Source: Deltaproteobacteria bacterium
Lineage (GTDB): Bacteria > Desulfobacterota > JADFXK01
Length of the DNA: 40,300 bases
Assembly: GCA_015233295.1 (NCBI GenBank)
Contig: JADFYC010000002.1
Location: 1-40,300 of the forward strand
Direction: 5' to 3'
The notes under the pieces are model-generated. The model saw nothing but the letters and a program-made list of their open reading frames with translations. It made no database searches and was not told where the DNA came from. A program made the position numbers and the translations under genes. Position 1 is the first letter of the stretch. Each line of letters begins with the position of its first letter. Below are positions 7,492-32,999 of the stretch, in pieces.

Positions 7492-7540
7492 GTTGCGGGG
7501 TTCGTGTTACGGGTTACGGGTTGCTGGTTACATGTTGCCA
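7492..7540 (+). repeat. Tandem heptamer array (GTTRCNN) x7, in exact 7-nt phase
   Basis: The units read gttgcgg ggttcgt gttacgg gttacgg gttgctg gttacat gttgcca. The array lies 26 nt upstream of the phosphomannomutase start on the opposite strand. Confidence 0.8.
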
Positions 7541-7590
7541 GTCTATGACGTTAATTTGTGGTTAAATTTGATTAACTTCACGGCTCCCCC

Positions 7591-7649
7591 TTGTCATTTC
7601 GAGCGAAGCGAGAAATCTTAAGATTCCTCACATTCGTTCGGAATGACAA
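7591..7649. repeat. 59-nt imperfect palindrome (REP/MITE-like intergenic hairpin element)
   Basis: The arm ttgtcatttcgagcgaa (7591-7607) pairs with ttcgttcggaatgacaa (7633-7649). The pairing is 17 bp if two G-U pairs are allowed. The loop contains a nested palindrome, aatcttaagatt. Confidence 0.6.
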
Positions 7650-7764
7650 AATGGGAATCGTTGGACCAAGCGGGAATCATTGTTATTTGGTTGCGGCTTA
7701 AGGCGCACGGCGTTGGGCTTTTTCCCGAAATGTTATAACCCAACCTGAGCGCCGACCCGAGGCA

Positions 7765-9381
7765 TCAGCTTGCCGCCGCACCCAGCTTTGGGATCGTCAC
7801 CGTCGGGAACAGGGACAGATCCGTATGGGGAATGAATTTAGCCGCGGCGAACATGGTCATGAATTCGGCATTGACGTTCAACTCCACGTAGGTGATCTTG
7901 TCGCAGATCTGGGGGATGCGGGCCCGCTTTTCGGCCGAGAGCAGGGCCAGAGCCGCACCGGTTAAGGAGCTATTCATCAACGGTTGGTACTTGTTTCGGG
8001 GCAGGTCCGGGATCATGCCGATGGTGATGGCCATCTCCGGGTCGATATAGTTTCCGAATGTACCGGCCACGTAGAATTTAGCCATGTCGTGAATGTCCAA
8101 CCCCACAGTGGACGGGATGATCCGGAGAATGGTGTACATGGCCGCTTTGGAGGCCAGCAGGATGGTAATGTCTACTTCCGATACGATAACATCCCGGCCA
8201 TGCCCCGACTCCGCGGCCGGCACCACCCGATAGCCCCAGATACCTTCGTCCTCCACCAGGCACGGACAACCACTCTCAAGGATGAACTTGCCCTTGGAAT
8301 TGATGATGCCGCAGGTAAACAGTTCGGCCAACAAGTCAATCAAACCCGAGCCGCAAATGCCGATGGGCTTGATGTCACCTATAACCGAATAGGACGGTGT
8401 CAAGGTCCGGCGGTCGATGCGAATGCGCTCAATGGTCCCTGGTCCGGCCATCATCCCCATCTTGGCCACGCCGCCCTCTAATGCCGGTCCGGCCGCTCCG
8501 GCGCAGGCCACCAGCCAGTCCTTGTTACCCAGGACCACCTCGGCATTGGTCCCCACGTCAACCAGGATGGACACGTCATCGCCCTCGTTCAATCCCGAGG
8601 CCAGGATCCCGGCGATGAGGTCGCCCCCAAAATAACTGCCCACATTGGGCATGATCAGGCACGGGGCGGCGGGATGGATGTCGATGCCCAACTCTGCAGC
8701 CGAGGTGAGATCCGGCCGGTTGACCACCGGAATGTAAGGTTCCCGGCAGATATGGAAGGTATCCAGCCCCAGGAAAAAATGGGTCATGGTGGTGTTTCCG
8801 GCCACGCACAGGGAATAGATATTATCTGCTTTTATCCCGGCGGTCCGGACCAGATCATGGATGACCTGATTGAAACCATCGATCACCGCCCGGCGGAGGA
8901 GAAGATGCCCTTCGTTTTTGGCGGAGCAGTGGATCCTGGTAAGGATATCCGCACCATAAGCGACTTGCGGATTAACCGCCGAAACCTGGCTGATGACCCG
9001 GCCGACGCTCACGTCCAGGAGGGCAAAAACAATCGTGGTCGTCCCCAGATCTATGGCCAGGCCATAATTAGCCGCAGTGGTGTCACCGGCCTCCAGATCG
9101 ATAATCTGGTAACCGCCCTCTTCAGACCGGGCCAGGGTAATCGTGGCGTCGAAATCGGCGTCCCGAAGCCTGGCCGAAAGTTCCGCCAGTCGCGAAAGCG
9201 GCGACCAGACGTGGTTCAGGTCGTAAGCGACGCGCAGTGCCCGCTTAATTCGGTCCACGTCCGCGACGTTATCCCCCAGGGCGGGCTTGGGTGGGAGAAT
9301 ATGGTATTTTTCAGCCAGCGGCGACAAGGCCGCGTCCTTAAGAATTAGACTCCCTTGATCTATCGAATGTTCCTTCATCAT
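7765..9381 (-). CDS. ASKHA-fold ATPase, DUF4445 family (RACo-like corrinoid reductive-activase C-terminal module) without an N-terminal ferredoxin domain
   Basis: It has actin/hexokinase-like phosphate loops: GLAIDLGTTTIVFALLD, ILVDVGTNAEVVLG and CAGAAGPALEG. Its length and order match DUF4445 proteins. There is no Cys cluster in the first 100 aa. Confidence 0.75.
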   Translation of the reverse strand: MMKEHSIDQGSLILKDAALSPLAEKYHILPPKPALGDNVADVDRIKRALRVAYDLNHVWSPLSRLAELSARLRDADFDATITLARSEEGGYQIIDLEAGDTTAANYGLAIDLGTTTIVFALLDVSVGRVISQVSAVNPQVAYGADILTRIHCSAKNEGHLLLRRAVIDGFNQVIHDLVRTAGIKADNIYSLCVAGNTTMTHFFLGLDTFHICREPYIPVVNRPDLTSAAELGIDIHPAAPCLIMPNVGSYFGGDLIAGILASGLNEGDDVSILVDVGTNAEVVLGNKDWLVACAGAAGPALEGGVAKMGMMAGPGTIERIRIDRRTLTPSYSVIGDIKPIGICGSGLIDLLAELFTCGIINSKGKFILESGCPCLVEDEGIWGYRVVPAAESGHGRDVIVSEVDITILLASKAAMYTILRIIPSTVGLDIHDMAKFYVAGTFGNYIDPEMAITIGMIPDLPRNKYQPLMNSSLTGAALALLSAEKRARIPQICDKITYVELNVNAEFMTMFAAAKFIPHTDLSLFPTVTIPKLGAAAS

Positions 9382-9410
9382 TACCTCATACCGCCGGTTA
9401 ACACGGATAG

Positions 9411-9431
9411 GTTGCTCGTTGCAAGTTCCTG
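9411..9431 (+). repeat. Short heptamer array (gttgctc gttgcaa gttcctg) followed by GGGTCCGGG
   Basis: Read directly from the sequence. The array lies 30 nt upstream of the DUF4445 start on the opposite strand. Confidence 0.55.
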
Positions 9432-9542
9432 GGTCCGGGCATTGAACTCTCCAGAGAACGAAGCTAATATTTTATTTTTGATGTTGAATTAGGGACCTCA
9501 TCCTCAGACCTTTAATTCCCTTTATTACTTATTGAAAACGAC

Positions 9543-9583
9543 CGGCAACGAGTAGCCGCAACAAGCAACAAACAACCAGCAAC
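9543..9583 (-). repeat. Heptamer array in the opposite orientation (NNGCAAC units on the + strand)
   Basis: The units read cggcaac gagtagc cgcaac aagcaac aaacaac cagcaac, with one 6-nt unit. The array lies about 45 nt downstream of the zinc-ribbon gene stop. Confidence 0.7.
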
Positions 9584-9630
9584 GTGACCAGTTTTCGGAC
9601 CCATGGCAGACCTTAGTTTCGGCCGGCTGA

Positions 9631-9888
9631 TCACAGGGGAATGATGCCGGCCGGAGCCAGGTTCTTTTCGATTTTGTCTCCAACGCTGGCGCCGCAGTGA
9701 ACACACAAATATTCATACTTGTCACCCTCTGGAATCACCAGCAAGAGTCTCTTGCGGACAGGTACTGCCTGCCGGCACCTGGGGCAATACAGGGCTGAGG
9801 CCTCGAATTGTTCAAAGGCTTCCTGTGGGGCTCGATTCTGGACTGGAAATGGCTGCCCCCCAATCCCGGCCTTCCGATACGACACCAT
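9631..9888 (-). CDS. Small zinc-ribbon protein (CPRC...CVHC), function unknown
   Basis: The internal ATG at 9888 (MVSYRKAG...) has GGGAGGA 8 nt upstream, so I prefer it to the track start at 9915. Two CxxC pairs are separated by 26 residues. Confidence 0.5.
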   Translation of the reverse strand: MVSYRKAGIGGQPFPVQNRAPQEAFEQFEASALYCPRCRQAVPVRKRLLLVIPEGDKYEYLCVHCGASVGDKIEKNLAPAGIIPL

Positions 9889-10292
9889 TGTTCGATTCCT
9901 CCCTGACAGATACATTCTAAAATAAGTCTCCAGCAGTCCGAGCCAACCAGGCCAAAACGGGTGATTAGGAATCCCCGGCTAGGCCGAGCGTTATTATACC
10001 TCAAACAGCCGAGGCTGCCTACCCCAAATATAAGGTTTCTGCGGCGCGGACCGAATAAATTCATGGACTACGTCCGGGCCGGGAGGATCAATCGTGGCCG
10101 GAATCGACAAAATAATCAGTCATTGTATGTAGCAGCACGTATTGCTGATTTATTTTTTTCAGTTAGCAACCTTGAATTTCTTCCTTGCCTGTTTGGGGGC
10201 AAGGAGGATATATTGCCGACTCAACATGTTGAATAGACCGTGGATTAGAATGGCTACTGTTAAATAGTGTAATCATCAATGGGGGTTCGCCA

Positions 10293-11255
10293 ATGTTCAG
10301 TAGTAAACGCGTGTTGGTCACCGGTGGCGCCGGTTTCTTAGGCTCGCACCTGTGTGACCGGTTGGTCGCGGAGGGGCATGATGTGTTATGTCTTGACAAT
10401 TTTTTCACCGGCAATAAAAATAACATAATTCATCTAATCGGCCGGCAAAATTTTGAACTAATCCGCCATGACCTGGTCCACCCCATTTATATAGAGGTTG
10501 ATGAAGTATATAACCTGGCTTGCCCGGCTTCACCGATCCATTACCAGTTTAATCCGATTAAGACCATCAAGACCAATGTCATGGGCGCCATCAACATGTT
10601 GGGCCTGGCTAAGAGGGTAAAAGCCAAAATCCTCCAGGCGTCCACCAGTGAGATTTACGGTGATCCCCATGTTCATCCGCAACGTGAAGATTATTGGGGA
10701 AATGTTAATACGATCGGCATCAGATCATGTTATGATGAGGGCAAACGCTGTGCGGAGACCCTGTTCTTCGATTATCATCGCCAGAGCAAATTGAACATCA
10801 GGGTGGCCAGGATTTTCAATACTTATGGTCCCAGGATGCACCCCAATGACGGCCGCGTCGTCAGCAATTTTATCTTACAAGCTCTAACCAACAGAGATAT
10901 AACCATCTATGGCGATGGGACCCAAACCCGTTCTTTTTGCTATGTGGATGACATGGTCGAGGGACTGGTCAGGCTAATGAATGGCCCGGATGAGTTTGTG
11001 GGACCGGTGAATCTGGGCAACCCTTCCGAGTTTTCCATTGAAGACCTGGCTCGGAAGATCATCGGCTTGACCGGATCGAATTCGGAGCTGGTTTTTAAGC
11101 CGCTTCCCCAAGACGACCCCAGACAACGCCGTCCCGACATCAGCCTGGCCAACCAAAATCTAGGATGGACGCCCAGCGTGCCCTTGGAACACGGTTTGTC
11201 CAAAACCATCGAGTATTTTGAGCAACTATTAAAAGATGAACCCGGGTTGAGATGA
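10293..11255 (+). CDS. UDP-glucuronate decarboxylase (UDP-xylose synthase-like SDR, NAD-dependent epimerase/dehydratase family)
   Basis: It has the Rossmann motif [29 protein letters not shown], the catalytic YDEGKR and STSEIYGDP are characteristic of the UXS/ArnA-decarboxylase clade. Confidence 0.85.
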
Positions 11256-11259
11256 TCGG

Positions 11260-11273
11260 GTTGCGGGTCACTT
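11260..11273 (+). repeat. Weak two-unit heptamer remnant (gttgcgg gtcactt)
   Basis: It starts 5 nt after the UXS stop. With only two units it could be chance. Confidence 0.3.
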
Positions 11274-11364
11274 GAGAAATCTCTTTAGATGTTAAGTTGG
11301 ATAGATGATCACAACATCGCTGCAGTCTACATTTATCTAAGTATAAATTTAAGGAGGAGACATT

Positions 11365-13437
11365 ATGACGAACACGATGTGGCGATTATTCATCTTGTTA
11401 TTGTCTTTCGGCCTGCTCTGCCCGCCGAGCTCCCCGGCCGCACCGGTCACTCCCACCATGGTTGAACAAGTAGGACAAACGCAGCTCACGGCCCAGAATC
11501 AGGTTGCCTGCGCGGACCAGGCCAAACGGGGAATCGCGGGGTATCAAGATAGAACCGTCGCCTCCATCGGTGAACTCAAGAATAGCCGGGGCGACACCTT
11601 GGCCTATGTTTTAACTTTGTCTCCCACGGGTTATATCGTCATCTCCACCGATACCGACATCACGCCGATTATCGCTCAATCGCACGACAGCAATTTCATC
11701 TGGGAAGATTCTCCGGCAAATGTCTTGCTCCACCTGGTCACTCTAGACATGGAAAACCGACTTAAAGCCCTACCCGAGACCGGCGCCGCGGTAAAACAAG
11801 CCAATAACACCCGCTGGAATAATTACGTCGCCGCCGACGGCGCGCTCGTGTCCCAAATTACCAGAGCCGCCACCTACGGGCCCCTGCTCAGCCCCCCGAC
11901 ATGGAATCAAGATTCGCCCTATAACGGCTACTGCCCCATGGACCCCGTAACCCAAACTAGATCATTAACCGGTTGCGTGGCCACCGCAATGGCCCAGATT
12001 GTCAATTATTACGAGAGGCCTGTCTCAGTCACCTTCCTCGCTACCGATAATTACACCACGGACACAAGGAAGATCGACATTACCGCCTCCACCGCCGATA
12101 TCGCCGGCATCACCTATCCCGCCGGCGGTGATATGGCCGCTCGCCTGTCTTACGCCTGCGGGGTTTCTGTTAAAATGGACTATACCAGCGCCTTTTCCGG
12201 CGCCTATACGAAGGACCTGGCCTGGGCCCTCAGATACAGGTTTGGTTATGTCTCCGCCATTTATAAAGACACCTTCAACGATTCGATTTATCCCATCATC
12301 CAGAATAACATAAAGAATCGACAGCCGGTGAATTTAGCCATCACCGACATCTCCATCAGCGGGCACTCCATTGTCTGCGACGGCTATAACGACGGCTCCG
12401 GTCAGTATCATCTGAACTTCGGCTGGGGCGGGACCACGGATGGTTGGTATAGTCTGCCGTACGGCATGCCCGAACAATACATGCTTATTGATAACGCCGT
12501 GACGGATATCAGGCCGAACGGTACGCCGATTCGATATGATTTTGACGGGAACGGACAATCCGACATGCTATGGTATAATTCGTCAACCGGCCAAAGCGTG
12601 GCCTGGTTGATGAACGGAACGTCCATCGCCTCCTACGGCAAGATTAACACAGTCAGCGATTTAAATTGGAAAATCCAAGGGGTAGGTGATTTCAACGGCG
12701 ACGGCAAAGCCGATATCCTCTGGCGCAATGAAGCTACCGGCCAAGTCTGGATGTACCTGATGAACGGGGCGTCCATCGCTTCCCAGGGATCTGTCGGCAC
12801 GGTCGACGACTTGTCCTGGCAAATTCAAGGCGTGGCTGATTTCAACGGCGACGGCAAGGCCGACATTCTGTGGCGCAATGTGGCCAATGGGGATGTCTAT
12901 ATCTGGTTGATGAACGGTATGATTCCGTCCTCTAAGTCTTCCGTCGGCGCGGTCGGCAACCTGGACTGGCAAATTCAAGGCGTGGGTGATTTCGACGGCG
13001 ACGGCAAGGCCGACATCCTCTGGCGCAATGTGGCCAATGGGGATGTCTATATCTGGTTGATGAACGGTATGATTCCGTCCTCTAAGTCTTCCGTCGGCGC
13101 GGTCGGCAACCTGGACTGGCAAATTCAAGGCGTGGGTGATTTCGACGGCGACGGCAAGGCCGACATCCTCTGGCGCAATGTGGCCGATGGCGAGGTCTAT
13201 ATTTGGCTGATGAACGGTATGACCCCGTCCTCTAAGTCTTCCGTCGGCGTGGTCGGCGACTTGAACTGGAAGATTCAAGGAATCGGTGATTTCAACGGCG
13301 ACGGCAAGGCCGACATTCTGTGGCGCAATTCCTCCACCGGGCAGGTCTGGATGTACCTGATGAACGGGGCGTCCATCGCTTCCCAGGGGCCGTTAGCCAT
13401 CATCAACGACTCGAATTGGCAAACCCAACTAAAGTGA
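11365..13437 (+). CDS. Secreted peptidase C10 (streptopain/SpeB-like cysteine protease) with an N-terminal inhibitor-like prodomain and six C-terminal FG-GAP/VCBS-type repeats
   Basis: A strong AAGGAGGAG RBS precedes the start and the N-terminus is a signal peptide. The catalytic Cys motif is SPYNGYCP...TGCVATAMAQIVNYY. The His region is GHSIVCDGYN...YHLNFGWGGTTDGWYSL, which matches SpeB GHAFVIDG...YHVNWGWGG.SDGFF. These are followed by six 50-aa repeats of the form DF[ND]GDGKADILWRN. Confidence 0.9.
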   Translation: MTNTMWRLFILLLSFGLLCPPSSPAAPVTPTMVEQVGQTQLTAQNQVACADQAKRGIAGYQDRTVASIGELKNSRGDTLAYVLTLSPTGYIVISTDTDITPIIAQSHDSNFIWEDSPANVLLHLVTLDMENRLKALPETGAAVKQANNTRWNNYVAADGALVSQITRAATYGPLLSPPTWNQDSPYNGYCPMDPVTQTRSLTGCVATAMAQIVNYYERPVSVTFLATDNYTTDTRKIDITASTADIAGITYPAGGDMAARLSYACGVSVKMDYTSAFSGAYTKDLAWALRYRFGYVSAIYKDTFNDSIYPIIQNNIKNRQPVNLAITDISISGHSIVCDGYNDGSGQYHLNFGWGGTTDGWYSLPYGMPEQYMLIDNAVTDIRPNGTPIRYDFDGNGQSDMLWYNSSTGQSVAWLMNGTSIASYGKINTVSDLNWKIQGVGDFNGDGKADILWRNEATGQVWMYLMNGASIASQGSVGTVDDLSWQIQGVADFNGDGKADILWRNVANGDVYIWLMNGMIPSSKSSVGAVGNLDWQIQGVGDFDGDGKADILWRNVANGDVYIWLMNGMIPSSKSSVGAVGNLDWQIQGVGDFDGDGKADILWRNVADGEVYIWLMNGMTPSSKSSVGVVGDLNWKIQGIGDFNGDGKADILWRNSSTGQVWMYLMNGASIASQGPLAIINDSNWQTQLK
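12538..13437 (+). repeat. Six tandem 150-bp coding repeats (FG-GAP units). Units 12838-12987 and 12988-13137 are nearly identical.
   Basis: Unit boundaries at 12538, 12688, 12838, 12988, 13138 and 13288 all start with gat ttc/ttt. Units 3 and 4 differ at only a few nucleotides. Units 2 and 6 share an identical stretch, gtctggatgtacctgatgaacggggcgtccatcgcttcccagg. Confidence 0.9.
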
Positions 13438-13533
13438 GTCCATGCGCCGCCGCGGTGTCGAATAATTGGGCCCGCCGCCGATCGCCCCGTCATCTGAGGA
13501 TTAAATTTCGTAACCTATCGGCATAATCATATG

Positions 13534-13565
13534 CCCTGCCGGGTCGCTCCGGTGGGGCTTTTTTT
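13534..13565 (+). terminator. Rho-independent terminator downstream of the C10 peptidase gene
   Basis: The stem ccctgccgg (13534-13542) pairs with ccggtgggg (13549-13557) over 9 bp including two G-U pairs. The loop is gtcgct. A run of 7 T follows at 13559-13565. Confidence 0.7.
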
Positions 13566-13697
13566 GCGCAGGTTGTGAATCCGGCCCGGGCGAGGTCCAC
13601 TCTGTCCACGACCGCGCGCGGCCGGTCAGGGTGTGGAAGCCGCCCGGCGATGTTGAAATTTAGCAATATTTTAATCAGTTATTATATCAAAATTACT

Positions 13698-13726
13698 TTG
13701 CCGGACCCACCGATTCATGTTATATA
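13698..13726 (+). promoter_or_regulatory. Candidate promoter TTGCCG-N17-TATATA upstream of the sugar transferase
   Basis: The hexamers are at 13698-13703 and 13721-13726 with a 17-nt spacer. This would place the heptamer array at 13750-13791 in the 5' UTR. Pattern match only. Confidence 0.25.
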
Positions 13727-13749
13727 GCAAAAAATCAAATGACATTGTG

Positions 13750-13791
13750 CCGCAACACGCAACCCGTAACACGCAATTCGAACCCCGTAAC
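13750..13791 (-). repeat. Heptamer array of six in-phase units, read as NNGYAAC on the + strand
   Basis: The units read ccgcaac acgcaac ccgtaac acgcaat tcgaacc ccgtaac. The array ends 35 nt upstream of the sugar transferase ATG. Confidence 0.8.
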
Positions 13792-13826
13792 ACGATTGAC
13801 CGACACCGAAAAGGGAACCTGTTAGA

Positions 13827-15248: not shown

Positions 15249-15257
15249 CAATATAAT

Positions 15258-15299
15258 GTTGTGTGTTGCGGGTTTCTGGTTGAGGATTGCAGTTGCGGA
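15258..15299 (+). repeat. Heptamer array (gttgtgt gttgcgg gtttctg gttgagg attgcag ttgcgga)
   Basis: It starts 10 nt after the sugar transferase stop and ends 15 nt before the kinase ATG. The track TTG start at 15287 lies inside this array. Confidence 0.7.
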
Positions 15300-18861: not shown

Positions 18862-18865
18862 ACGG

Positions 18866-18922
18866 GTTGCGTGTTACATGTTACAGGTTACAAGTTTTTT
18901 GGTTACACGTTACTGGTTTGGG
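18866..18922 (+). repeat. Heptamer array of 8 units with one 1-nt phase slip
   Basis: The units read gttgcgt gttacat gttacag gttacaa gtttttt g gttacac gttactg gtttggg. The array begins 5 nt after the GGDEF stop. Confidence 0.85.
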
Positions 18923-19058
18923 GTCCGCTTGCATCGTCAGGCCTGTTCCGATTTAAACAGTAACTTACATAAATTAGTTTAATTGATTAGGGCAGAAATA
19001 AGCTGGTCCGGGTCAAAACACGACGCTTCGCACCGGAGATAGAAACGAAACCGGGACC

Positions 19059-19093
19059 CAACAACATGCAACATGTAATATGTAACCTGCAAC
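19059..19093 (-). repeat. Heptamer array of 5 units, inverted relative to 18866-18922
   Basis: The + strand reads caacaac atgcaac atgtaat atgtaac ctgcaac. The array ends 4 nt from the EF-G stop codon (19097-19099). Confidence 0.8.
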
Positions 19094-19096
19094 AGC

Positions 19097-21133
19097 CTAG
19101 TCCACCTGGTCGTAATGAGAGAAGTACATGGTGAAGGAACCGCGACCCTGGGTGGCGGAGCGGATGGCGGTAGAGTAGCCGAACATCTGTCTTAGAGGTA
19201 CGGAAGCCTGGAGTACGCTGATTTTTGCCCTGGGGGTGATGCCCTCTATTTTACCGCGACGGGCGTTCAAATCACCGATAACTTCACCCAAGAAATCCTC
19301 CGGGACGACCACCTCCACCCGCATGATCGGCTCCAACAAGATGACCTGGGCCTTGGCGCAGGCCGCCTTAAAAGCCAAGGCAGAGGCGATCTTAAAGGCC
19401 ATTTCGCTTGAAAAATCGGGATGGACTGATACGCTCAGGAGTTCGGCCCGGACATCCACCATGGGATATCCGGCAGATACGCCGCCGGCCATGGATTCCA
19501 TGACCCCTTCTTCGATGGGGGCGAGGAAATGAGCGGAAAGGAGTTCCTCACTGACCTGGTTGATGAATCGGTTGCCGCTGCCCCTGGTGCGGGGTGAAAC
19601 CCGCAGTGTGACCGTGGCCCGATGGTGGGATCCGGCCAGCTCGCGGTCAAATGTTTCGGTGTATTCAGCCTTTTCCTTGACGCACTCACGGTAAACGACC
19701 TGGGGCTTGCCCACATTCACATCCAGGTTGTGCTCCCGTTTGATGCGGTGGACCAGCACCTCCAGATGGAGTTCTCCCATGCCGGATATAATTGTCTGAC
19801 CGGTGTCCTCATCCTGGTTAAAATGGAAGGTGGGATCTTCTTCAGCCAGGGATTGGAGTACCTGGAACAGCTTTTCTTGATCACCGATCGATTTAGGTTC
19901 CACTGCAACCGAAATGACCGGTTCGTAAATATCAATGGGCTCCAGCAAGATCGGATGGTCTTTGGGACACAGCGTATCGCCGGTTTTGGTTTTTTTCAAC
20001 CCCATGACGGCCACGATGTCTCCTGCCGCGGCCGCGTCCAATCGCTCCCTTTTATTGGAGTGCATTTTCAGAATTCGGGAAACTTTTTCAAAGGACTGAC
20101 GGGTGGGATTGTAGACCTCGGCCCCGGTGGCGAGCTTGCCGGAATAGATGCGCAGATAAGCCACCTTGCGGCCCTGATCCATCTGGATCTTAAAGGCCAG
20201 GGCAGACAGAGGCTGGGTATCGGCCGATGGTCGCGTAACGTTATCCCCGGTGTTGGGATCATGGCCGGAAACCGGCGGAACATCCAGGGGGGTGGGTAAG
20301 TAGCTGACAATCCCGTCCAGCAATGGTTGCACGCCCTGGTTCCTTAAGGCCGCACCGCAGAAAACAGGCACAATCTTGAGGCCGATGGTTCCCCGCCGAA
20401 TAGCGGCCTGGAGATCCTTCAGCGGTACTTCTGTTTCAGCCAGGTACTTTTCCATAATCCCATCGTCAAAATCAGCGGCCTTCTCTATCAACTGTTCTCG
20501 ATATTCTAAGGCCGTCTCCAGGTCGTCTTCGGGGATGTCGCGCTCCTCAAGCTCCATTCCCAGCGATTCTTTACGCCAGACGATCCACTTCATTTTAATC
20601 AGATCAATCACCCCGTCAAAGGTCTCTTCCTGACCATGGGGCAACTCCAACAACAGGGGATCAGCATGGAGCCGGTCCTTGATCATGTCGACGCAATTAA
20701 AAAAGTTGGCCCCCACTCGGTCCATCTTGTTGATAAACACGATCTTGGGCAAATGATATTTATCCGCCTGACGCCAAACCGTCTCGGACTGGGGTTCCAC
20801 CCCGCCCACCGCGCAAAAGACACCTATCGCTCCGTCTAATACCCGAAGGGATCGTTCCACTTCGATGGTGAAGTCCACGTGGCCGGGGGTGTCAATAATA
20901 TTGATCACCGCTTCTTTCCAGAGGCAGGTGGTCACCGCCGAGGTGATGGTGATGCCGCGCTCTTGTTCCTCCGGCATCCAGTCCATGATGGCCTCGCCAT
21001 CGTGCACCTCGCCCATTTTATGTGATTTACCGGTATAATATAGGATGCGTTCGGTCAAGGTCGTCTTGCCGGCGTCAATGTGGGCCATGATACCGATGTT
21101 TCGGATTTTTTGTAGTCTAGATGGGGCAGCCAT
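19097..21133 (-). CDS. fusA: Elongation factor G paralogue (translational GTPase), outside an str operon context
   Basis: The G1 motif is [15 protein letters not shown]3 is DTPGHVDF and G4 is NKMD. Domain II-V conservation runs to the C-terminus. I prefer ATG 21133 ([12 protein letters not shown]...) to the extended track start at 21178. Confidence 0.9.
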
Positions 21134-25391: not shown

Positions 25392-25470
25392 CCGAATTTT
25401 TCCGGTTTCTATTTTAGAGAAGTCCTATAATTTATATATAGTTGATGGTAGATAGAAGATAGACTTACGC

Positions 25471-27615
25471 TCAACGCAAAGGATTGCCCTGGGATAATAC
25501 TTCCAGAACTCGTGCGACTTCAATTTCTATTTTACCTAAGTATATATTGACTTTTTCCAGGTCGTCTTTTCTACCGAAGTCTTCCAATTGCCTGGCGCAA
25601 TCATTCAACGCCACGGCGCCAAGAGTAGCCGCCGAACCTTTCAGAGAATGAGCTGTTTTAGTTAACGCATTGATGTCATTACTAATCGACGCATCATTAA
25701 GTGCGGTTATCTTTTTTGGCAAATCGTCTTTAAAAAGTTCAAGCAATTCATCAAGGAAGTCCTTCTTGCGGCCAAATTTATCAGCCAGCCAGACCAAATC
25801 AAATACCGGTAATTCTTTATCAGACAAGTCTGGATGCCGGGTGGTGATTACGGTTTTCATATCCTTGGGACTAGTCAAATGGGGGGCGACTTGTTTAATG
25901 ACATGGACTAGCTCTTCGACATCAATCGGCTTGGTAATATATCCGTTCATCCCGGCCGCGAGAAAGGTTTCCCGATCTCCCTTCATGGCGTGAGCAGTTT
26001 GAGCGATTATGGGAATCCGGGGGTCGAATTTGTCGCCAGTGGAGTTTCTAATTAAAACAGTAGTTTCAATCCCATCCATCTCCGGCATGGATATGTCCAT
26101 CAGAATCAGATGGAATCGCTCCTTTTCCAATTGCTCTAAGACCTCTCGACCATTTTTCGCCACCGAAACGCTATGCCCCAGGCTCTCTAAAAACTCAGTC
26201 GCGAAGGTTTGATTCAATTCATTATCTTCAGCCAATAGAATCTTTAGGGGTTTCAATTGAACCTGGGTTACTCCTTTAGCAGTGACGACCGGGTGGTCAT
26301 GGCCGGGCGAAGCCAGGTCGAATTCGGCGGTGAAATAGAAGGTCGACCCAACGCCGGCAGCGCTTTTGACCCAGATGGAGCCATTCATCATCTCGACCAG
26401 TCTCTTCGATATAGTCAGTCCCAACCCCGTGCCGCCGAATTTTCTCGTGGTTGACGAGTCGGCTTGAGTAAAAGAATCAAAAATTACTTTCTGCTTATCA
26501 TCAATAATTCCGATGCCCGTATCTTGCACCGAAAAGAGCAGACGAATGGGGTCGGCTTGTATCGTTGATGGATCCTTGTCCCACTGTTTTTCTAAAGTCA
26601 CCCGGATCTCTATCTCCCCGGCCTGAGTGAATTTTATGGCGTTCCCGACTAAATTTGTAATTATCTGCCCTAATCTATCCGGGTCGCCGTAAAGCCGGAC
26701 CGGTATGTCGGGGTTGATCTCTAAATACAAAGCCAGGCCCTTATCTTTGGCGGCGAGAGATAGGTTACTGATGATTTGATCTAATACTTCATTAAGGACA
26801 AAATTTGTCAAGGCCAGCTCAAATTTTCCGGCTTCGATTTTAGAAAAATCCAAGATGTCGTTAATTAAAGTTAATAGGGCATCAGATGCGTTCTTAACAG
26901 CCAATAATTGATTCTTCTGTTTGGCGGACAATTCACTGTTAATGGCTAAACGGGTCATGCCCATGATCACGTTTAAAGGCGTCCGAATTTCATGACTCAT
27001 ATTGGCGACGAATTCGGACTTGGCCTGGTTGGCTGCCTCGGCCTTTTCTTTGGCCCGGATAAGCTCTTGTTCCATCCTCTTCCGTTCGGTAATATCCGTT
27101 ACTGTTCCGACGAAACCAATGACGGTTCCATCAACTTTTCTTTCTGGAATAGCTCGGCCAAGGACCCAGCTTATTTCGCCGGTCCGTCTTTTAAAACGCC
27201 ATTCATCCTCATAATACGAATCAAAAGCAACTGAGTTTTGCCATCCGGTGAATATTCTAGAGGCGTCATCAGGGTGTAAAGACCTGGCCCAACCGGTTCC
27301 CTTGGCCTCTTCTATTGATAACCCAGTGATATCACTCCATCGATCAGAGACAAAGACATAAGTGCCCTGCGCGTCGGTCCGGAAAATCCCGACCGGCGCA
27401 ATTTTAGCGATATTCTTAAATAAAGCCTCGCTTTGTTTTAGAGCGTCTTCTGCCCGTTTTAGGTTGGATATATCCCGAGCCGCGGCAAAAACGCCCAATA
27501 CTTGACCCGTTTCCTCCCAGTAAACACTGGCGTTATAAAGAACATGAAATATCTGTCCCGACCGGTGCTGGATGGCTAGAGGGTAATCTGTGACCCGGCC
27601 TTGCGAAAATACCAT
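25471..27615 (-). CDS. C-terminal part of a frameshift-split giant hybrid histidine kinase: PAS remainder, PAS, HisKA, HATPase_c, REC, Hpt
   Basis: It begins mid-PAS (MVFSQGRVTDYPLAI...). The H-box is SHEIRTPLNVI. Other motifs are GGTGLGLTI, the REC motif LMDISMPEMDG and the Hpt motif HSLKGSAATLG. This reading frame is open upstream to 27717 and overlaps the end of the N-terminal part. Confidence 0.85.
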   Translation of the reverse strand: MVFSQGRVTDYPLAIQHRSGQIFHVLYNASVYWEETGQVLGVFAAARDISNLKRAEDALKQSEALFKNIAKIAPVGIFRTDAQGTYVFVSDRWSDITGLSIEEAKGTGWARSLHPDDASRIFTGWQNSVAFDSYYEDEWRFKRRTGEISWVLGRAIPERKVDGTVIGFVGTVTDITERKRMEQELIRAKEKAEAANQAKSEFVANMSHEIRTPLNVIMGMTRLAINSELSAKQKNQLLAVKNASDALLTLINDILDFSKIEAGKFELALTNFVLNEVLDQIISNLSLAAKDKGLALYLEINPDIPVRLYGDPDRLGQIITNLVGNAIKFTQAGEIEIRVTLEKQWDKDPSTIQADPIRLLFSVQDTGIGIIDDKQKVIFDSFTQADSSTTRKFGGTGLGLTISKRLVEMMNGSIWVKSAAGVGSTFYFTAEFDLASPGHDHPVVTAKGVTQVQLKPLKILLAEDNELNQTFATEFLESLGHSVSVAKNGREVLEQLEKERFHLILMDISMPEMDGIETTVLIRNSTGDKFDPRIPIIAQTAHAMKGDRETFLAAGMNGYITKPIDVEELVHVIKQVAPHLTSPKDMKTVITTRHPDLSDKELPVFDLVWLADKFGRKKDFLDELLELFKDDLPKKITALNDASISNDINALTKTAHSLKGSAATLGAVALNDCARQLEDFGRKDDLEKVNIYLGKIEIEVARVLEVLSQGNPLR

Positions 27616-30600
27616 CTTATAGCCGTCCTTAGCCTTATCCGGTTCGGTAAAATAGTCGGAAAAACACTGCCTATGAGATATTCTCTGGATACCCCCGTGA
27701 CCATTTCGGTGGCCCGATTAACATCGGTGATCTTACCCTCGGGGCTGATCGTGACCAGCGGATCAAGGCTGGCTTCAATCAGGCTACGGTTATAGGAGAA
27801 TGATTTTTTAACTTTTTCTTCAGCCAATTTGCGATCCGTAATATCGTGAAAAATTTCCAGCTTGGAGATGGCGCCATCTTCATTGAAAAACGGGGTATCG
27901 AATAACTCATAGATTCGTCCGGTCTTAGGCAACTGGAATTCCCATAAGACCGACTTGCCGGCAAAGACCTCGTCATTTTTGCACCACGGGCATGACAATG
28001 TTCGCTCGTATAAGTATTCATAGCACTTTCGTCCGTTAACCGGACCAAAATCCTTTTCAATGGAGGGGTTGATGTATTCGACCTGGTGTTGCTGGTTTAC
28101 GATGTAAATACCATTAGGCATGGAATCCAGGATACCGCGTAATCTATTACGTTCTACCTGGAGAGAAGCTTCCGCCTTTTTGCGGGCGGTAATATCAAGG
28201 TGAGTACCGGTAGCCCGAAAGGCTTCGCCGGCGGCATCGCGTTCCACAACTTTCCCCTTGCCCAAGACCCAGACCCAGTCACCTGATTTTGATTTTAGCC
28301 TGTGCTCAGCTTCATAAAAAGGTGTTCGGCCTGATTGATGTTCCTGCCACCTGGCCATCACCCGATCAATATCTTCAGGGTGTAATAGGTTGATCCAGCT
28401 ATTGAACTCCGGCTCAACTTCATCGAGTCCATATCCCAGCATAGCCGCCCAACGTTCATTAAATATACACCGGCCGGTCTGGATGTTCCAATCCCACAGG
28501 CCCAGGTCACCGCCTTGCAAGGCCAGTTCCAGCCGTTCTTCGTTTCTACGGATGACATTCTCGGCCAGCTTGCGGTCGGAAATATCGTATCCCAGTCCGA
28601 TCAACCCAACGATCGTGCCGGATTCATCTTTAACCGGAACTTTGCGTGTCGACACCACCAATCTCTTTTTCCCATCAATCATTTCCTCTTCAACTTCAAG
28701 ATCAGGTACCGCACCAGACAAGATGCGTTGATCGTCGGAATGATACTTCTCCGCCAGGTTTGGGGGAAAAAAATCATAGTCGGTTTTACCGGGGACGTCA
28801 TCAGGACTTATATTGACTGCGTCACAGAAGACCCGATTAGCCGTGATATAGGTGGATCGATGGTCTTTAAAAAAGGCAAAGCCGGGTAAACAATCCATGA
28901 GGATGTTGAACTCCCGGTATCGCCGGCGTTCCCACTCCTCGGCCTGCTTGCGAACCGTGATGTCTTCCGCTACGCCGGCTCGCCGGATTATTTGACCGGC
29001 CTGGTCTTTTATCGGGAAGGTTCTCGCCCGAATCCATCTGATCGTTCCATCGGGACGAACAATCCGATATTCTTCATCAAAAATTTCCTGTCTCAATATT
29101 TCTTCATGTCCCAGGTGGGCCGCGATTCTGGCTCTATCTTCATGATAAATAGCGTTGACGAATGATAAGGGATTTTCATATAAGCTTTGGCAGGACCGGC
29201 CCCAAATTCTTTCATAGGCGGGACTGATGTATAAGACTTCTCGAGTGGTTCTGAGCCAGAAGACTTCATCGGCGTTTTCAGCCAACTGCCTAAATTTCTC
29301 CTCACTCTGCTTCAACAGAGTTTCCGTTTGTTTTCGGCCGGTAATATCAGTGGCTATTCCGCAGACGGCGTAAGGTTTCCCCTCCGAGTTGAGCAAAGGG
29401 AACTTATTGGAAATGTATGCCCGGACCTGGCCGGCCGTGGGGATTATTTCTTCTAATTCCATATGAACATTGTTGCGGAGAACCAGTTGATCTTGTTGTC
29501 TAAGGGTTGCAGCCAACTCCGGCGGGAAAAGATCAAAATCAGTTTTGCCTTCTATATTTTTCTGGGGTATCTGAAAGATGTTCTCAAATTGGCGGTTGAC
29601 TAAAATATATCTCCCTTCTAAGTCTTTGATGAATATTACGTTAGGTGAATTGTCCAGCACGGCCCGCAGGAGTTGTTCTTTTTCCTGAAGGGCCACAGCC
29701 GCCTGTTTCTGATCGCTGATATCTCGGGCCACACCCACAAAACCGATGTACAGCCCTTGCTCGTCTTTTAGCAGAGTCGAGGTCATCCAGGTGGGAAAAA
29801 TTGTTCCATCCTTTTTGCGATGGCCCACTTCACATTGATGAAAATTGTTTTTCATGGCCTGATCGCCAAATGGAATAACATCGCGGCAGATTTGTTTCTC
29901 GGTATGGAACATAATTAAACTCTGTCCCAAACACTCTTCCTTGGAAAACTGGTGCATTTTAGCCCAGGCCGAATTGAGGTACAGGACTTGTCCTTCGGTG
30001 TCGACTACGACCAGGCCGTCTATGGCGCTTTCCACGGCATGTTCGAGCAGACGTAATGATTTCTCGGCCTGCTTTCGTTTGGTGATATCATCGACTACCC
30101 CAAAAGAGCCGACGAAAAAGCCCAGGTCGTCATAAAGGGTCGAAGCTGAAATACGAGTATAAATTACCTGGCCATCTCTTCTAATCAATTCCACTTCATA
30201 CTGTTCGCCGATGCCCTGTTTCCGGCGCTCCAGTCGTTCTTTTAAAAAGTCATGATATTTTTCCGGGACATAGGATAATAACGGTTTCCCCTTGAGATCA
30301 TCAACGGGATAGTCCAGGATTTCAGCCATCCTGGGATTTGTAAAAGTGATTAACCCCTTATCGTCGATGGCAATAATCCCTTCCCAGGCTTGTTCGACTA
30401 AGCGGCGATACCTCTCTTCACTCCGGCGCAGCAAATCCTCCGCCTGTCGGCGATCCGTGATATTGATCCCTAAATTCATGATCATCGGGGCGCCGTCAGT
30501 GTCCATAAAAGGATATTCATGAACCTGATAAATCTGATTATCCGGACCGGCATATTCCCATGCCACCGATTCATGGGTTTCAAATACACCAGACGTCGGG

Positions 30601-32255
30601 CAGTCTCGGCAGGTGGTGGAACTTTGCCTAAACACCTCATGACAAAGCTTATGTTCAGGATCGCCGAATGCTTCCTTAAAGTAATTATTGCTAAATTGAA
30701 TGGTGAAATCCGGCGCCACAAGACAGACATACCCTGGTAAGTTATTTAAAATTGAGGACAGCCTATTTCTTTCGACTTCCAGGGCGTATTCCAGCCTTTT
30801 TGCCTCCGAGATATCTTCAACTACGCCTATCGCGCCAGAAAAGTCGCCTTCAGACGATTGTAACCTCTTGTGCCGGGCCCTGATCATGATATCCTTACCA
30901 CCGCAAACAGTGTGGTAGCCCCCTTCAAAAAAACCTGAACCAGTTATCAAGGCGTCTTCGATGGCCCCGCGGGCCGGACCTCCGGGCATGGATTTGATCA
31001 TATTAAAACCGATCAATTTATCTTTCGGCGCCCCGGTAATATGGCAGAACTGTTCATTACATTCGGTTATGACGCTGTCTTGATCAAAATGGATTATGCC
31101 TAAAGGGGATTGCTCGAAAATCATCTTGTATATTTGTTCCCTCTCATGGAGTTTATCGTCCGCCTGCCGCCGGGCAGCTTCCTTTTCAGCCAGGGATATG
31201 ACCATTTCGTGAAATAGGCGGATAAGATGCCCCAGTTCATCACCTGACGAAGGTAACTCCACCCGAACGTTTTGATCACCTTGTTTTATCCGTTCCATGG
31301 CGCCGCCGAGCGTCTTGATTCGATTAATGATCCCATACTTCCCTAGAAACCAGGCAATCACCACGGCCAACAATAAAGACAGCGCCAAAAGAATAACGTT
31401 CAGGATAAGTGTCGATCTCCCCCCGGCTAATACTTGAGCCTTGGGGTAACCAACTCGCAGATAGAGATATGGTGAGGCCTTCTCGGTTAAGCGCAATTGT
31501 TTGAAGGCATGGATGCGCACAATGTTATCCCATCCGGGTTCGGTAAATGTTCCTTCGGGCTGAGAGCCGGACATCCACCTGAACACGCGCGGCAAAACCG
31601 GCCCACCGACCTTTTTTTCCGGATCAGGTTTCCGATATAAAATTATACCGTTATGGTCAGCCAGGGTGATACTGGAGCCTTCCGGCAGCCTCAACATACT
31701 AAAGAAACGATCAAAATTACTTAAATCCAGCGACGCGACGACCACGCCCAGTAATTGTTTTCTTTCATCAAAAATTGGGTAGGAAAAATCCAGCGTTGGA
31801 GAGTTTGCCGTGGTCTTAATGTCGTATTCTCCCACTGAGAAATTCCGGCTGGTTACGGTATCTTTAAAATACTTTTGATCGGCCACCGAAGCCGGGGGAT
31901 GGGGGATGGCGGAGGCAAAAACCTGACCGTTTAGATCAACAGCAACAATATTTGCAAATAGGGTGTTTCGGGTGAGTAACTCGACGAATATTTTGTTGCA
32001 GGCGGCTCCGTTACGTTCCCGGACTGCCGGTAACTCGGCTAACGCACTAAGGAACTGTCGAGAACCGGCCTCGAACGTTTCTTGATAGGCCACCATTGTC
32101 TGCGCCATCCTGAGGACATTGAGCGCGCCTCTGGCCACCGCCTCATCTAAATTCCTCAAGCCACTGTAGACCATAATCCCCAGGGCGGGAACCACACATA
32201 GGAAGGCCAGTATGATCAAGCTAGTGCGAATCGACCAGGACCAAAGAATTTTCAT
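27576..32255 (-). CDS. N-terminal part of the same kinase: TM, dCache-like periplasmic domain, TM, HAMP and about nine PAS domains, with no kinase core
   Basis: The N-terminal TM is followed by a periplasmic domain of about 260 aa, a second TM (LILNVILLALSLLLAVVIAWFL) and a HAMP domain. Repeated PAS S-box modules follow, each ending D[IV][ST].RK.AE. It terminates with about 25 out-of-frame residues after ...REYLIGSVF. Confidence 0.85.
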   Translation of the reverse strand: MKILWSWSIRTSLIILAFLCVVPALGIMVYSGLRNLDEAVARGALNVLRMAQTMVAYQETFEAGSRQFLSALAELPAVRERNGAACNKIFVELLTRNTLFANIVAVDLNGQVFASAIPHPPASVADQKYFKDTVTSRNFSVGEYDIKTTANSPTLDFSYPIFDERKQLLGVVVASLDLSNFDRFFSMLRLPEGSSITLADHNGIILYRKPDPEKKVGGPVLPRVFRWMSGSQPEGTFTEPGWDNIVRIHAFKQLRLTEKASPYLYLRVGYPKAQVLAGGRSTLILNVILLALSLLLAVVIAWFLGKYGIINRIKTLGGAMERIKQGDQNVRVELPSSGDELGHLIRLFHEMVISLAEKEAARRQADDKLHEREQIYKMIFEQSPLGIIHFDQDSVITECNEQFCHITGAPKDKLIGFNMIKSMPGGPARGAIEDALITGSGFFEGGYHTVCGGKDIMIRARHKRLQSSEGDFSGAIGVVEDISEAKRLEYALEVERNRLSSILNNLPGYVCLVAPDFTIQFSNNYFKEAFGDPEHKLCHEVFRQSSTTCRDCPTSGVFETHESVAWEYAGPDNQIYQVHEYPFMDTDGAPMIMNLGINITDRRQAEDLLRRSEERYRRLVEQAWEGIIAIDDKGLITFTNPRMAEILDYPVDDLKGKPLLSYVPEKYHDFLKERLERRKQGIGEQYEVELIRRDGQVIYTRISASTLYDDLGFFVGSFGVVDDITKRKQAEKSLRLLEHAVESAIDGLVVVDTEGQVLYLNSAWAKMHQFSKEECLGQSLIMFHTEKQICRDVIPFGDQAMKNNFHQCEVGHRKKDGTIFPTWMTSTLLKDEQGLYIGFVGVARDISDQKQAAVALQEKEQLLRAVLDNSPNVIFIKDLEGRYILVNRQFENIFQIPQKNIEGKTDFDLFPPELAATLRQQDQLVLRNNVHMELEEIIPTAGQVRAYISNKFPLLNSEGKPYAVCGIATDITGRKQTETLLKQSEEKFRQLAENADEVFWLRTTREVLYISPAYERIWGRSCQSLYENPLSFVNAIYHEDRARIAAHLGHEEILRQEIFDEEYRIVRPDGTIRWIRARTFPIKDQAGQIIRRAGVAEDITVRKQAEEWERRRYREFNILMDCLPGFAFFKDHRSTYITANRVFCDAVNISPDDVPGKTDYDFFPPNLAEKYHSDDQRILSGAVPDLEVEEEMIDGKKRLVVSTRKVPVKDESGTIVGLIGLGYDISDRKLAENVIRRNEERLELALQGGDLGLWDWNIQTGRCIFNERWAAMLGYGLDEVEPEFNSWINLLHPEDIDRVMARWQEHQSGRTPFYEAEHRLKSKSGDWVWVLGKGKVVERDAAGEAFRATGTHLDITARKKAEASLQVERNRLRGILDSMPNGIYIVNQQHQVEYINPSIEKDFGPVNGRKCYEYLYERTLSCPWCKNDEVFAGKSVLWEFQLPKTGRIYELFDTPFFNEDGAISKLEIFHDITDRKLAEEKVKKSFSYNRSLIEASLDPLVTISPEGKITDVNRATEMVTGVSREYLIGSVFPTILPNRIRLRTAIRWYFRKAGSQITL

Positions 32256-32466
32256 TTTTCATACCACTCGGTTGTTTTCAATGGTTAATTACGGCCGGTT
32301 GAAGCTTCATTCACATAAGCTAGACGATTGTACCTTATATCACATGATGCCGGAGCCAAACAATAGATTTTGACTCGCCTCCCCCGGCAAACGCATAAAA
32401 TAATTTACAGCTACTAAACTCATCGTCTTACAAGAATGGTTAAATGGTATTTAAGGAGGAAAAATA

Positions 32467-32508
32467 ATGAAAAAAATGAGTCGTCAAAGGATTTCGTGGG
32501 CCGGGTGA
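32467..32508 (+). CDS. Possible 13-codon micro-ORF (MKKMSRQRISWAG) with a canonical Shine-Dalgarno sequence
   Basis: AAGGAGG is at 32453-32459, 7 nt before ATG 32467, and TGA is at 32506-32508. It lies in an intergenic region between two minus-strand genes. There is no other support. Confidence 0.2.
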   Translation: MKKMSRQRISWAG

Positions 32509-32615
32509 TGCAGCACATAGCGGGAGATGTGGTGGAATGATTAAGACATCAGTGTTTCGGAGAAGTGATCGCACGAGACGGGGGAGCCTAAAAAAGGGGT
32601 TGGGGAAGTAACTAA

Positions 32616-32957
32616 TTATACGCCGGGGAAAGGGTGGTCGCCGAAGATTTCTTGATAAACAGCATCGTCTGCAGCCTGGCAGCGGTCTCTCAGGTCACTA
32701 TATTTCTTGAGCAGTTCCTCACCTTCCGGGGTCAGTTGACTACCGCGGCCGGATTCAGTCATGACCAATGAGAAACCCAAACGCTCCTCAGTCAGCTTGA
32801 TCCGACTCCACAAGCCCCGGTAAGACATACCCAACTGCTGGGCCGCCTTATTCATTGAGCCCAGCTCCCGAATGAGTTCCAGGATCCGGAAACGGCCGGG
32901 GCCAAAAACATGCTCGTTCTCGTCATTTTCCAGGCGGTAGGTGGATCTGAGGTGCAT
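32616..32957 (-). CDS. ModE N-terminal-like winged helix-turn-helix protein (short LysR/ModE-type DNA-binding domain only)
   Basis: RILELIRELGSMNKAAQQLGMSYRGLWSRIKLTEERLGFSLV....GRGSQLTPEGEELL matches the ModE/LysR HTH_1 pattern (S...AA..LGMSYR.AW). There is no Mop/TOBE domain. Confidence 0.7.
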   Translation of the reverse strand: MHLRSTYRLENDENEHVFGPGRFRILELIRELGSMNKAAQQLGMSYRGLWSRIKLTEERLGFSLVMTESGRGSQLTPEGEELLKKYSDLRDRCQAADDAVYQEIFGDHPFPGV

Positions 32958-32971
32958 GGTCTCGCCAGAGT

Positions 32972-32999
32972 GTTACGGGTTTCGTGTTGCGGGTCAATG
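32972..32999 (+). repeat. Heptamer array (gttacgg gtttcgt gttgcgg gtcaatg) with a further gttgcgt at 33015
   Basis: It starts 15 nt upstream of the ModE-like start on the opposite strand. Confidence 0.7.

Follow-up and report, generated by a model that had tools for sequence, protein, structure and literature searches.

Short tandem arrays of a degenerate heptanucleotide, GTTRCNN, border open reading frames (ORFs) with a fixed polarity in contig JADFYC010000002.1 of assembly GCA_015233295.1. This contig, complete at 40,300 nt and metagenome-assembled, is labeled "Deltaproteobacteria bacterium" by NCBI (Thermodesulfobacteriota) and is the window referred to throughout. At all nine arrays, the strand that bears GTTRC reads away from the adjacent ORF, irrespective of whether the array adjoins the start or the stop of that ORF. 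We lean toward the view that these are lineage-specific, slippage-prone heptanucleotide repeats that lie close to ORFs and take their fixed polarity from a general strand-specific constraint. The class itself has already been described, and what is new here is modest: a degenerate unit, a new phylum, and a rule that has no need of quadruplexes. Heptanucleotides outnumber all other long simple repeats in many bacterial genomes; if a common mechanism exists, small and regular arrays such as these would be a tractable handle on it.

Orientation of the arrays in the window

An initial annotation of the window had reported nine intergenic arrays, and inspection of the sequence located every one of them where it had been placed (Table 1). 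The 7-nt period is far above the chance level given by 200 dinucleotide shuffles of the window. Same-strand GTTRC pairs occur 13, 10, and 7 times at spacings of 7, 14, and 21 nt and never at 5, 6, or 8 to 12 nt; in the shuffles, spacing-7 pairs had a mean of 0.14 and a maximum of 2. The few pairs at spacing 15 or 22 are 1-nt phase slips. A relaxed scan (three or more units, at most one mismatch per core and at most two mismatches overall) returned eight arrays, compared with 0.29 in shuffles. All eight lie wholly within the 12% of the window that is noncoding, which bears out the earlier claim that the arrays are confined to intergenic DNA. The minimal array at 11260-11273, with one good and one degenerate unit, fails the three-unit test. 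Run without knowledge of the core, the program TRF called five arrays, with a period of 7 or 14; the only other period-7 repeat that it called in the window is short and coding.

Arrays of this lineage have the unit logo G-T-T-R-C-D-K, and each unit contains about one C. Information content is approximately 1.3 to 2.0 bits at unit positions 1, 2, 3, and 5 and 0.25 to 0.7 bits at positions 4, 6, and 7, in a logo that is conditioned on the core used for the search. Both TRF and the unit analysis show 14-nt double-unit periods in some arrays, which supports an origin by slippage. The units that flank the arrays resemble the core more on the 3' side (2.85 matches) than on the 5' side (2.23 matches), the 3' one being a partial "GTT" unit; beyond this first flanking unit, no growth or decay gradient was found along the arrays. 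A GGGTCC(G/C)GG motif that had been proposed as a companion of several arrays is not enriched in the window, with 29 matches at no more than one mismatch (4 of them exact) against 32.7 expected.

Read along the GTTRC strand, the gene on the 5' side lies 3 to 47 nt away in all nine cases, start or stop alike. The gene on the 3' side lies 91 to 417 nt away in eight of the nine, the exception being 15258-15299, at 14 nt. The initial annotation had described two patterns, GYAAC before starts and GTTRC after stops. These are a single rule, namely, that the GTTRC strand runs outward from the ORF it adjoins. Because it does so, two arrays in one spacer face each other, and in both spacers with an array at each border (9411-9583 and 18866-19093) the arrays face inward. 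The earlier conclusion that orientation is nonrandom therefore stands, with all nine arrays fitting the single rule, but its literal form, GYAAC before every start, is broken by 15258-15299.

TABLE 1 Heptamer arrays and associated features of the window, with unit numbers at orthologous sites in relatives
Feature	Coordinates	GTTRC strand	Context	Units in window	Units in relative
Array before phosphomannomutase gene	7492..7540	+	Units GTTGCGG GGTTCGT GTTACGG GTTACGG GTTGCTG GTTACAT GTTGCCA; 5' end 28 nt upstream of ATG (7463, minus), just past GGAGGA ribosome-binding site; nearest gene on 3' side 224 nt off	7	4-5 (L122; units differ)
Array before RACo/DUF4445 gene	9411..9431	+	29 nt upstream of start (9381, minus); left arm of inward-facing pair with 9543-9583	3	1
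Array after small zinc-ribbon-like ORF	9543..9583	-	GTTGC on minus strand; 47 nt past stop (9631); right arm of pair	4-6	1
Minimal array after UXS-like gene	11260..11273	+	GTTGCGG GTCACTT; 4 nt past stop	2	2
Array before sugar-transferase gene	13750..13791	-	GYAAC on plus (sense) strand; 35 nt upstream of ATG (13827)	6	3 (L121)
Array at sugar transferase-kinase junction	15258..15299	+	9 nt past sugar-transferase stop, 14 nt before kinase ATG 15314	6	7 (L121)
Spacer between convergent GGDEF and EF-G genes	18862..19096		Inward-facing array at each border
Array after GGDEF response-regulator gene	18866..18922	+	4 nt past stop; one 1-nt phase slip; left arm of pair between convergent genes, orthologous arm in L001	About 8	4 (L001)
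Array after EF-G gene	19059..19093	-	GTTRC on minus strand; 3 nt past stop (19097-19099); right arm of GGDEF/EF-G pair, orthologous arm in L001	5	5 (L001)
Single GTTAC unit after HTH_1 gene	32608..32612	-	3 nt past stop of the gene in the next row
Array before HTH_1 gene	32972..32999	+	14 nt upstream of ATG (32957, minus) of 113-aa HTH_1 (ModE/LysR-type) gene	3-4	1

The array at 15258-15299 fills the 65-nt gap from the sugar-transferase stop to the kinase start, with GTTRC on the sense strand of the kinase gene. It had been called ambiguous because it also precedes a kinase start. Comparison with a relative leaves the array in front of the kinase but corrects the start to ATG 15314, at which the conserved protein begins (MDLKKSF), from TTG 15287, the longest-ORF start, which falls inside the array. 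In the relative (L121, 2310-2409), the kinase ORF annotated by NCBI likewise starts upstream and passes through the array (MVLRVSGFRLFVAGC...). Because the GTTRC strand is without stop codons and abounds in UUG and GUG, ORFs downstream of an array are extended through it by gene callers. The kinase ORF, overextended at its N terminus both in the window and in the relative's NCBI record, is a warning for annotation.

Recurrence in relatives and in other phyla

We compared the window with syntenic loci (including L001, L121, L122, and L123) in GCA_015233625.1, GCA_015233355.1, GCA_015233285.1, and isolate nDJH8bin5. Two of these four assemblies bear nDJH isolate names (nDJH13bin5 and nDJH8bin5), and genomes of the nDJH series are cited in two papers on magnetotactic bacteria. 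For every window array that could be compared, the orthologous site is occupied in the same orientation, with unit number and variable bases changed (Table 1). The same arrays thus recur in four other assemblies, and an assembly artifact, which the initial annotation had entertained, is therefore excluded.

Conservation extends to the weakest sites. A single GCAAC unit lies in both L121 and L122 at a position identical to that of 9411-9431, adjoining the conserved leader ctatccgtgttaac, and L121 has a single GTTAC 42 nt past the stop orthologous to that of the small zinc-ribbon-like ORF. The minimal array at 11260-11273 recurs in L121 as TCAG-GTTGCGG-GTTTAAG, again 4 nt past the orthologous UXS stop. 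In L123, a single GCAAC matches the position of 32972-32999, and ccgGTTAC (7063-7067) follows the orthologous HTH_1 stop, as in the window; conserved isolated units such as 32608-32612 may be seeds or remnants of arrays. The short ORF-side flank of the arrays is well conserved in relatives and the far-side DNA is not. At the 13750-13791 site, for example, L121 retains the 35-nt leader, and sequence past the array is unrelated. The relatives have additional independent arrays elsewhere, on other contigs, among them one that overlaps a stop codon (L106) and an inward pair with a short loop, at 4 nt from a stop (L078).

Where the EF-G and GGDEF arrays could be compared without gaps, differences fall at 2 of 36 sites for unit positions 1, 2, 3, and 5, at 17 of 27 for positions 4, 6, and 7, and at 4 of 48 in the flanks. 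Replacement of units by other members of the family, through slippage or conversion, would produce this contrast between a retained core and changed variable bases, and retention of the core is not by itself proof of selection on it.

To gauge the generality of the polarity, we turned to a scan for four tandem GTTRCNN units in one genome per species, which gave at least 119 loci in about 120 genomes of many phyla; by our own estimate, chance would yield approximately 17 loci in the entire collection under uniform base composition. The counts that follow are among the matches listed and their flanks, with gene calls that are longest-ORF approximations. The phyla represented include Bacteroidota, Chloroflexota, Planctomycetota, Acidobacteriota, Cyanobacteria, Desulfobacterota, and Verrucomicrobiota, with others. 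Period 7 dominates the tandem repeats (351 arrays; next period, 117), and 188 of the 351 period-7 arrays, in the flanks of the matches, are without the GTTRC core. The closer gene is on the 5' side for 44 arrays and on the 3' side for 21, with median distances of 31 and 103 nt. Within 25 nt of a stop, the sense strand of period-7 arrays has more G than C in 56 cases and more C than G in 13, and the coreless heptamers near stops, which were not selected by the search, show the same preference (20 versus 4). Near starts, GTTRC arrays are richer in C than in G in 16 cases and the reverse in 3; the stop-free GTTRC strand tends to be swallowed up by ORF calls, which inflates these counts. Arrays of opposite orientation that lie no more than 300 nt apart face inward (GTTRC then GYAAC) 24 times and outward 3 times (p = 5e-5). 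Viral contigs yielded at least 120 matches each for four GTTRCNN units and for four units of a reversed-core control, CRTTGNN, and the two patterns partly overlap.

Some of these genomes are more varied. Up to 10 heptamer families occupy neighboring spacers within single 8-kb stretches of L098 (Chloroflexia), L017 (Chloroflexaceae), L058 (Parcubacteria), and L111 (Okeania). Evidently, the expansion of heptamers in such genomes does not depend on a single sequence, in contrast to the lineage of the window.

Related repeat families, structure, and candidate explanations

A positional rule of the same kind has been published for other heptamers. Rehm et al. (2015; PMC4692102) described GGGAATC repeats in two Xanthomonas genomes and GGGGA(C/T)T repeats in Nostoc PCC 7120. 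These are about 90% intergenic and rare between divergent genes, lie 28 nt from the 5' ORF versus 160 nt from the 3' ORF whatever the orientation of the ORFs, and form convergent inverted pairs; related species share loci, whose length and sequence vary widely (PMC4692102). The authors favored G-quadruplexes and found no function and no link to gene function (PMC4692102). The window arrays share with them a 7-nt tandem organization, intergenic location, proximity to the 5' ORF, inverted pairs, and loci kept in relatives. They differ in that the unit is GTTRC plus two free bases, with different units mixed within an array, that four units are not preferred, and that the host belongs to the Thermodesulfobacteriota. 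Most also lack four-tract quadruplex capacity: runs of three or more G number 0 to 3 per array, with none in three arrays, and because four such tracts are needed, the published G-quadruplex explanation is inapplicable to most arrays here. The window arrays therefore belong to this class by position and fall outside its quadruplex subclass. Polarity without quadruplex capacity, and in unrelated heptamers, weakens the one structural explanation on offer.

The TAACTGA direct repeats that MacGregor (2015; PMC4679880) described in marine Beggiatoaceae, cyanobacteria, and Bacteroidetes come in sets of 2 to 6 copies, are intergenic, and mostly lie just upstream of starts, and post-transcriptional action was proposed for them. 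As in the window, there is one heptamer family per genome and it is intergenic. The TAACTGA unit is invariant, however, and lies within a few nucleotides of the start, and stop-side arrays and inward pairs are not a reported feature, whereas start-side arrays in the window are 14 to 35 nt upstream and about half of all arrays follow stops, which places them outside that family. Separately, ACTGATA/TAACTGA-type arrays lie 3 to 8 nt upstream of predicted starts in L026 (about 3877-3895 and 7275-7299), a member of the Chloroflexota, a phylum that is not in the 2015 description.

The initial annotation had drawn an analogy with the STRR repeats of heterocystous cyanobacteria, which are likewise tandem heptanucleotides, dispersed in the genome, intergenic, and of unknown function. 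STRR units are CCCCAGT, TTGGTCA, and CAACAGT. Both unit sequence and host phylum differ from those of the window arrays, which are not STRR repeats, and we found no published rule for the orientation of STRR relative to genes. The analogy was thus right as to general class but did not recognize the polarity rule already published for other heptamers (PMC4692102). Polymerase slippage was proposed for heptamers, again as the commonest long simple repeats, by Mrazek et al. (2007), as summarized in PMC4679880, and heptamers near recF and recO have modest effects on regulation according to a Nostoc preprint. A literature search found no newer work that resolves the function of heptamer repeats. As regards phase variation, relatives differ in unit number, the repeats are imperfect, and the adjoining genes are housekeeping or regulatory. 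HIP1 (GCGATCGC) has no copies in the window, and an Rfam 15 search of the whole window gave no match at gathering score.

Folding predictions single out one of the two paired spacers. In RNA from the spacer between the GGDEF and EF-G genes (18862-19096), the arms are predicted to pair in a stem of about 25 bp around the spacer, with a minimum free energy of -70.5 kcal/mol (z = -2.5). The L001 ortholog of this spacer, which is shorter, largely unalignable, and bordered by arms of another sequence, folds at -69.5 kcal/mol (z = -4.1). The 9411/9543 pair folds no better than its shuffles (z = -1.0). At unit position 6, the two arms of a pair have an unusual base in common (A in 7 of 9 units versus 3 of 24 elsewhere, T in 5 of 7 versus 3 of 26; p = 0.0008 and 0.004, in tests chosen post hoc), and three of the four arms resemble their physical partner more than any other array in the window. 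These variable bases common to both arms are suggestive. No compensatory change between arms was detected, variable-position identity being about 50% within a pair, only slightly above the 37% between orthologous arms.

The initial annotation had also raised the possibility of pairing between 5' and 3' untranslated regions (UTRs). Such pairing is physically possible, with 5'-type and 3'-type arrays predicted to form duplexes of -13 to -43 kcal/mol, but it is promiscuous. The array upstream of the phosphomannomutase gene and the array downstream of the sugar-transferase gene are predicted to pair at -43.2 kcal/mol, compared with -38.2 kcal/mol for the sugar-transferase gene's own two arrays, and noncognate arrays pair as well or better. 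Because any 5'-type array pairs with any 3'-type array, gene-specific UTR-UTR pairing is unlikely. In these predictions, a convincing stem comes only from arrays that face each other within one spacer.

Promoter-like sites at the arrays are not above chance. Terminator-like sites are not enriched there either (22 versus 17.7 expected), and the 3' arms have no U-tract after them. Two weak hairpins of terminator type are present just distal to stop-side arrays, one at 19035-19021 and the other, ending in a T-run, at the distal end of 9543-9583 (9559-9545), which fits a placement of these arrays between stop codon and terminator.

The account that we favor would run as follows. Arrays would arise and be remodeled by slipped-strand mispairing in 7- or 14-nt steps, together with conversion between units, and would persist in two short stretches, from the stop codon to the terminator and from the transcription start to the ribosome-binding site. 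In that case, (GUURCNN)n would be present in RNA exiting a gene and (NNGYAAC)n in RNA entering one. The polarity would come from a general constraint on strands near ORFs and not from a dedicated protein that reads GTTRC, a choice we make because unrelated heptamers from unrelated phyla show this polarity too. One such constraint might be that a G/U-rich strand, full of UUG, GUG, and AUG and without stops, is not tolerated in 5' leaders. A transcript crossing a spacer with arrays at both borders would fold into the stem of about 25 bp, which could plausibly serve as an insulator or be cut by RNase III. If the arrays affect expression at all, they probably do so modestly and in cis.

Several points weigh against this account. 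The array at 15258-15299 sits in the 5' leader of the kinase gene in the "wrong" orientation, and avoidance of spurious starts and ribosome-binding sites covers 5' leaders but not the preference for a G-rich strand after stops. The placement of the arrays in UTRs is one that we infer. In the cross-phylum comparison the stop-side results are exact and the start-side results are softer, hinging on uncertain start calls. One core is common to all arrays of the lineage, so that a sequence-specific factor is possible in principle. Finally, five of the nine arrays have no partner in their spacer, and the stem therefore cannot be a general purpose.

The common core leads to the alternative that each GTTRC or GYAAC is the site of a dedicated protein, binding RNA, single-stranded DNA, or duplex at a 7-nt pitch and marking gene borders, which we doubt while granting it some chance. 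Parallels would be HutP on UAG-N4 repeats and cold-shock or S1 domains on heptamers. The TTTTGAT heptads bound by ToxR in the Vibrio cholerae ctxAB promoter, which abut one another upstream of a gene and vary in copy number among strains, show that heptads in duplex DNA can be protein sites; they occupy a single promoter locus and have no stop-side counterpart. A protein of this kind would suit a core that is the same across the arrays of the lineage while positions 4, 6, and 7 vary, that is kept through heavy turnover of units, and that lies at sites conserved in four relatives, and comparable proposals have been published for TAACTGA repeats (PMC4679880) and for the Nostoc heptamers (preprint). 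Yet the logo is conditioned on the searched core, the swapping in of another family unit keeps that core without selection, and no candidate gene is linked to the arrays within the window. Above all, the shared polarity of unrelated heptamers in many phyla favors a general constraint over many lineage-specific proteins. It is unlikely, in our judgment, that the inverted pair is instead the selected unit, a hairpin or cruciform barrier serving as a terminator substitute, RNase III site, or block to 3' exonucleases, with single arrays as half-decayed pairs. The stems of about -70 kcal/mol predicted in two genomes with different arm sequences speak for it, as do the variable bases shared between arms, the short-loop pairs next to stops at Desulfobacterota loci L078, L073, and L097, and the inward excess among the matches listed, where loops are often 2 to 50 nt. 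The unpaired majority of window arrays, the nonsignificant fold of the 9411/9543 pair, and the missing U-tracts and unenriched terminator-like sites tell against it; moreover, inverted GTTRC cores pair automatically, which makes complementarity weak evidence for selection, and the tests on shared bases were post hoc.

The arrays could also be Rho-loading "guard" sites: a polymerase entering an ORF from the spacer would first transcribe a C-rich, G-poor (NNGYAAC)n tract, translation would rescue the sense transcript, and the antisense transcript would be terminated. Such sites would explain why polarity is set by the ORF border and not by gene direction, and the GYAAC strand has more C (11 to 33%, mean about 23%) than G (5 to 24%, mean about 13%) in all nine arrays. 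The arrays are only 20 to 57 nt long, however, TAACTGA-type repeats are not C-rich, and Nostoc follows the same positional rule (PMC4692102), all of which makes this very unlikely. The last of these points gains its weight from the cyanobacterial host. To our knowledge, cyanobacteria are without Rho. We consider it extremely improbable that the arrays are terminal inverted repeats of a mobile element, MITE-like or REP/REPIN-like, that inserts beside genes. Inward-facing arrays do bracket spacers, and the gene content between arrays differs among genomes. In the window, a C10-family peptidase gene with FG-GAP repeats (11365-13437) separates the UXS gene from the sugar-transferase gene; it is absent from the syntenic 211-nt spacer of a relative (L121, 3835-4045), and an Oxidored_FMN (OYE-family) gene lies between the small ORF and the RACo gene in L121 (5824-6927) and L122 (1-826), at a position where the window has only the 249-nt spacer 9382-9630. 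Any gene inserted into a spacer, however, necessarily lands between its border arrays. Outside the array ends, the two bracketed spacers of the window have nothing in common, the L001 counterpart of the GGDEF/EF-G spacer is for the most part unalignable though its arrays and genes are conserved, unit numbers of the arms vary, and no target-site duplications were found at the outer edges of the window arrays. REP, BIME, and REPIN sequences resemble the arrays in being extragenic, often after stops or between convergent genes, and in forming hairpin-capable inverted pairs. REPs are palindromic 20- to 40-mers of conserved sequence that are mobilized by RAYT transposases. The arms in the window, by comparison, are tandem heptamers without a palindrome of their own, and no transposase is linked to them in the window. 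Last, a speculative and distinctly improbable reading would make the arrays members of a pan-bacterial class of gene-border elements with a common, quadruplex-independent mechanism, for example a barrier to read-in transcripts through complementary exit and entry tracts, perhaps involving here a factor that reads GTTRC. It draws on the polarity of unrelated units in many phyla, the 24:3 ratio of inward to outward pairs among the matches listed, and the arrays that start a few nucleotides past a stop, and, if true, it would mean an unrecognized process at ORF borders.

Gene content and further features of the window

The genes that flank the arrays encode a phosphomannomutase, a RACo/DUF4445 protein, a UXS-like epimerase/dehydratase, a Bac_transf sugar transferase, a hybrid histidine kinase, a response regulator with a GGDEF domain, EF-G, and the 113-aa HTH_1 protein. 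The gene labels of the initial annotation were broadly right, its zinc-ribbon call being weak. The EF-G of the window has few close relatives and otherwise only about 64% identity to proteins of the Thermodesulfobacteriota.

The C10-family peptidase gene contains tandem coding repeats of 150 and 300 nt at 12667-13387. A dispersed intergenic inverted-repeat element of about 65 nt (ccttGTCATTTCGAGCGAAGCGAGAAATCttaaGATTCCTCACATTCGTTCGGAATGACaaa) lies at 7589-7655; it recurs in other spacers in L121 (about 8700-8790) and L122 (about 2600-2700 and 4370-4470), and a variant form is present in another Desulfobacterales genome (L036, about 90-170). This element is REP- or MITE-like in appearance and distinct from the heptamer arrays.

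Genes for signal transduction are unusually dense on the contig (15314-18861, 24252-32255, and 38235-40214) and include a 1,559-aa dCache-HAMP multi-PAS protein, three hybrid histidine kinases, and two GGDEF response regulators. A pair of small overlapping ORFs at 37488-37906, which encode a 77-aa UPF0150/HicB-like protein and a 62-aa HicA toxin, forms a putative type II toxin-antitoxin module that is absent from the gene list made at an 80-aa cutoff.

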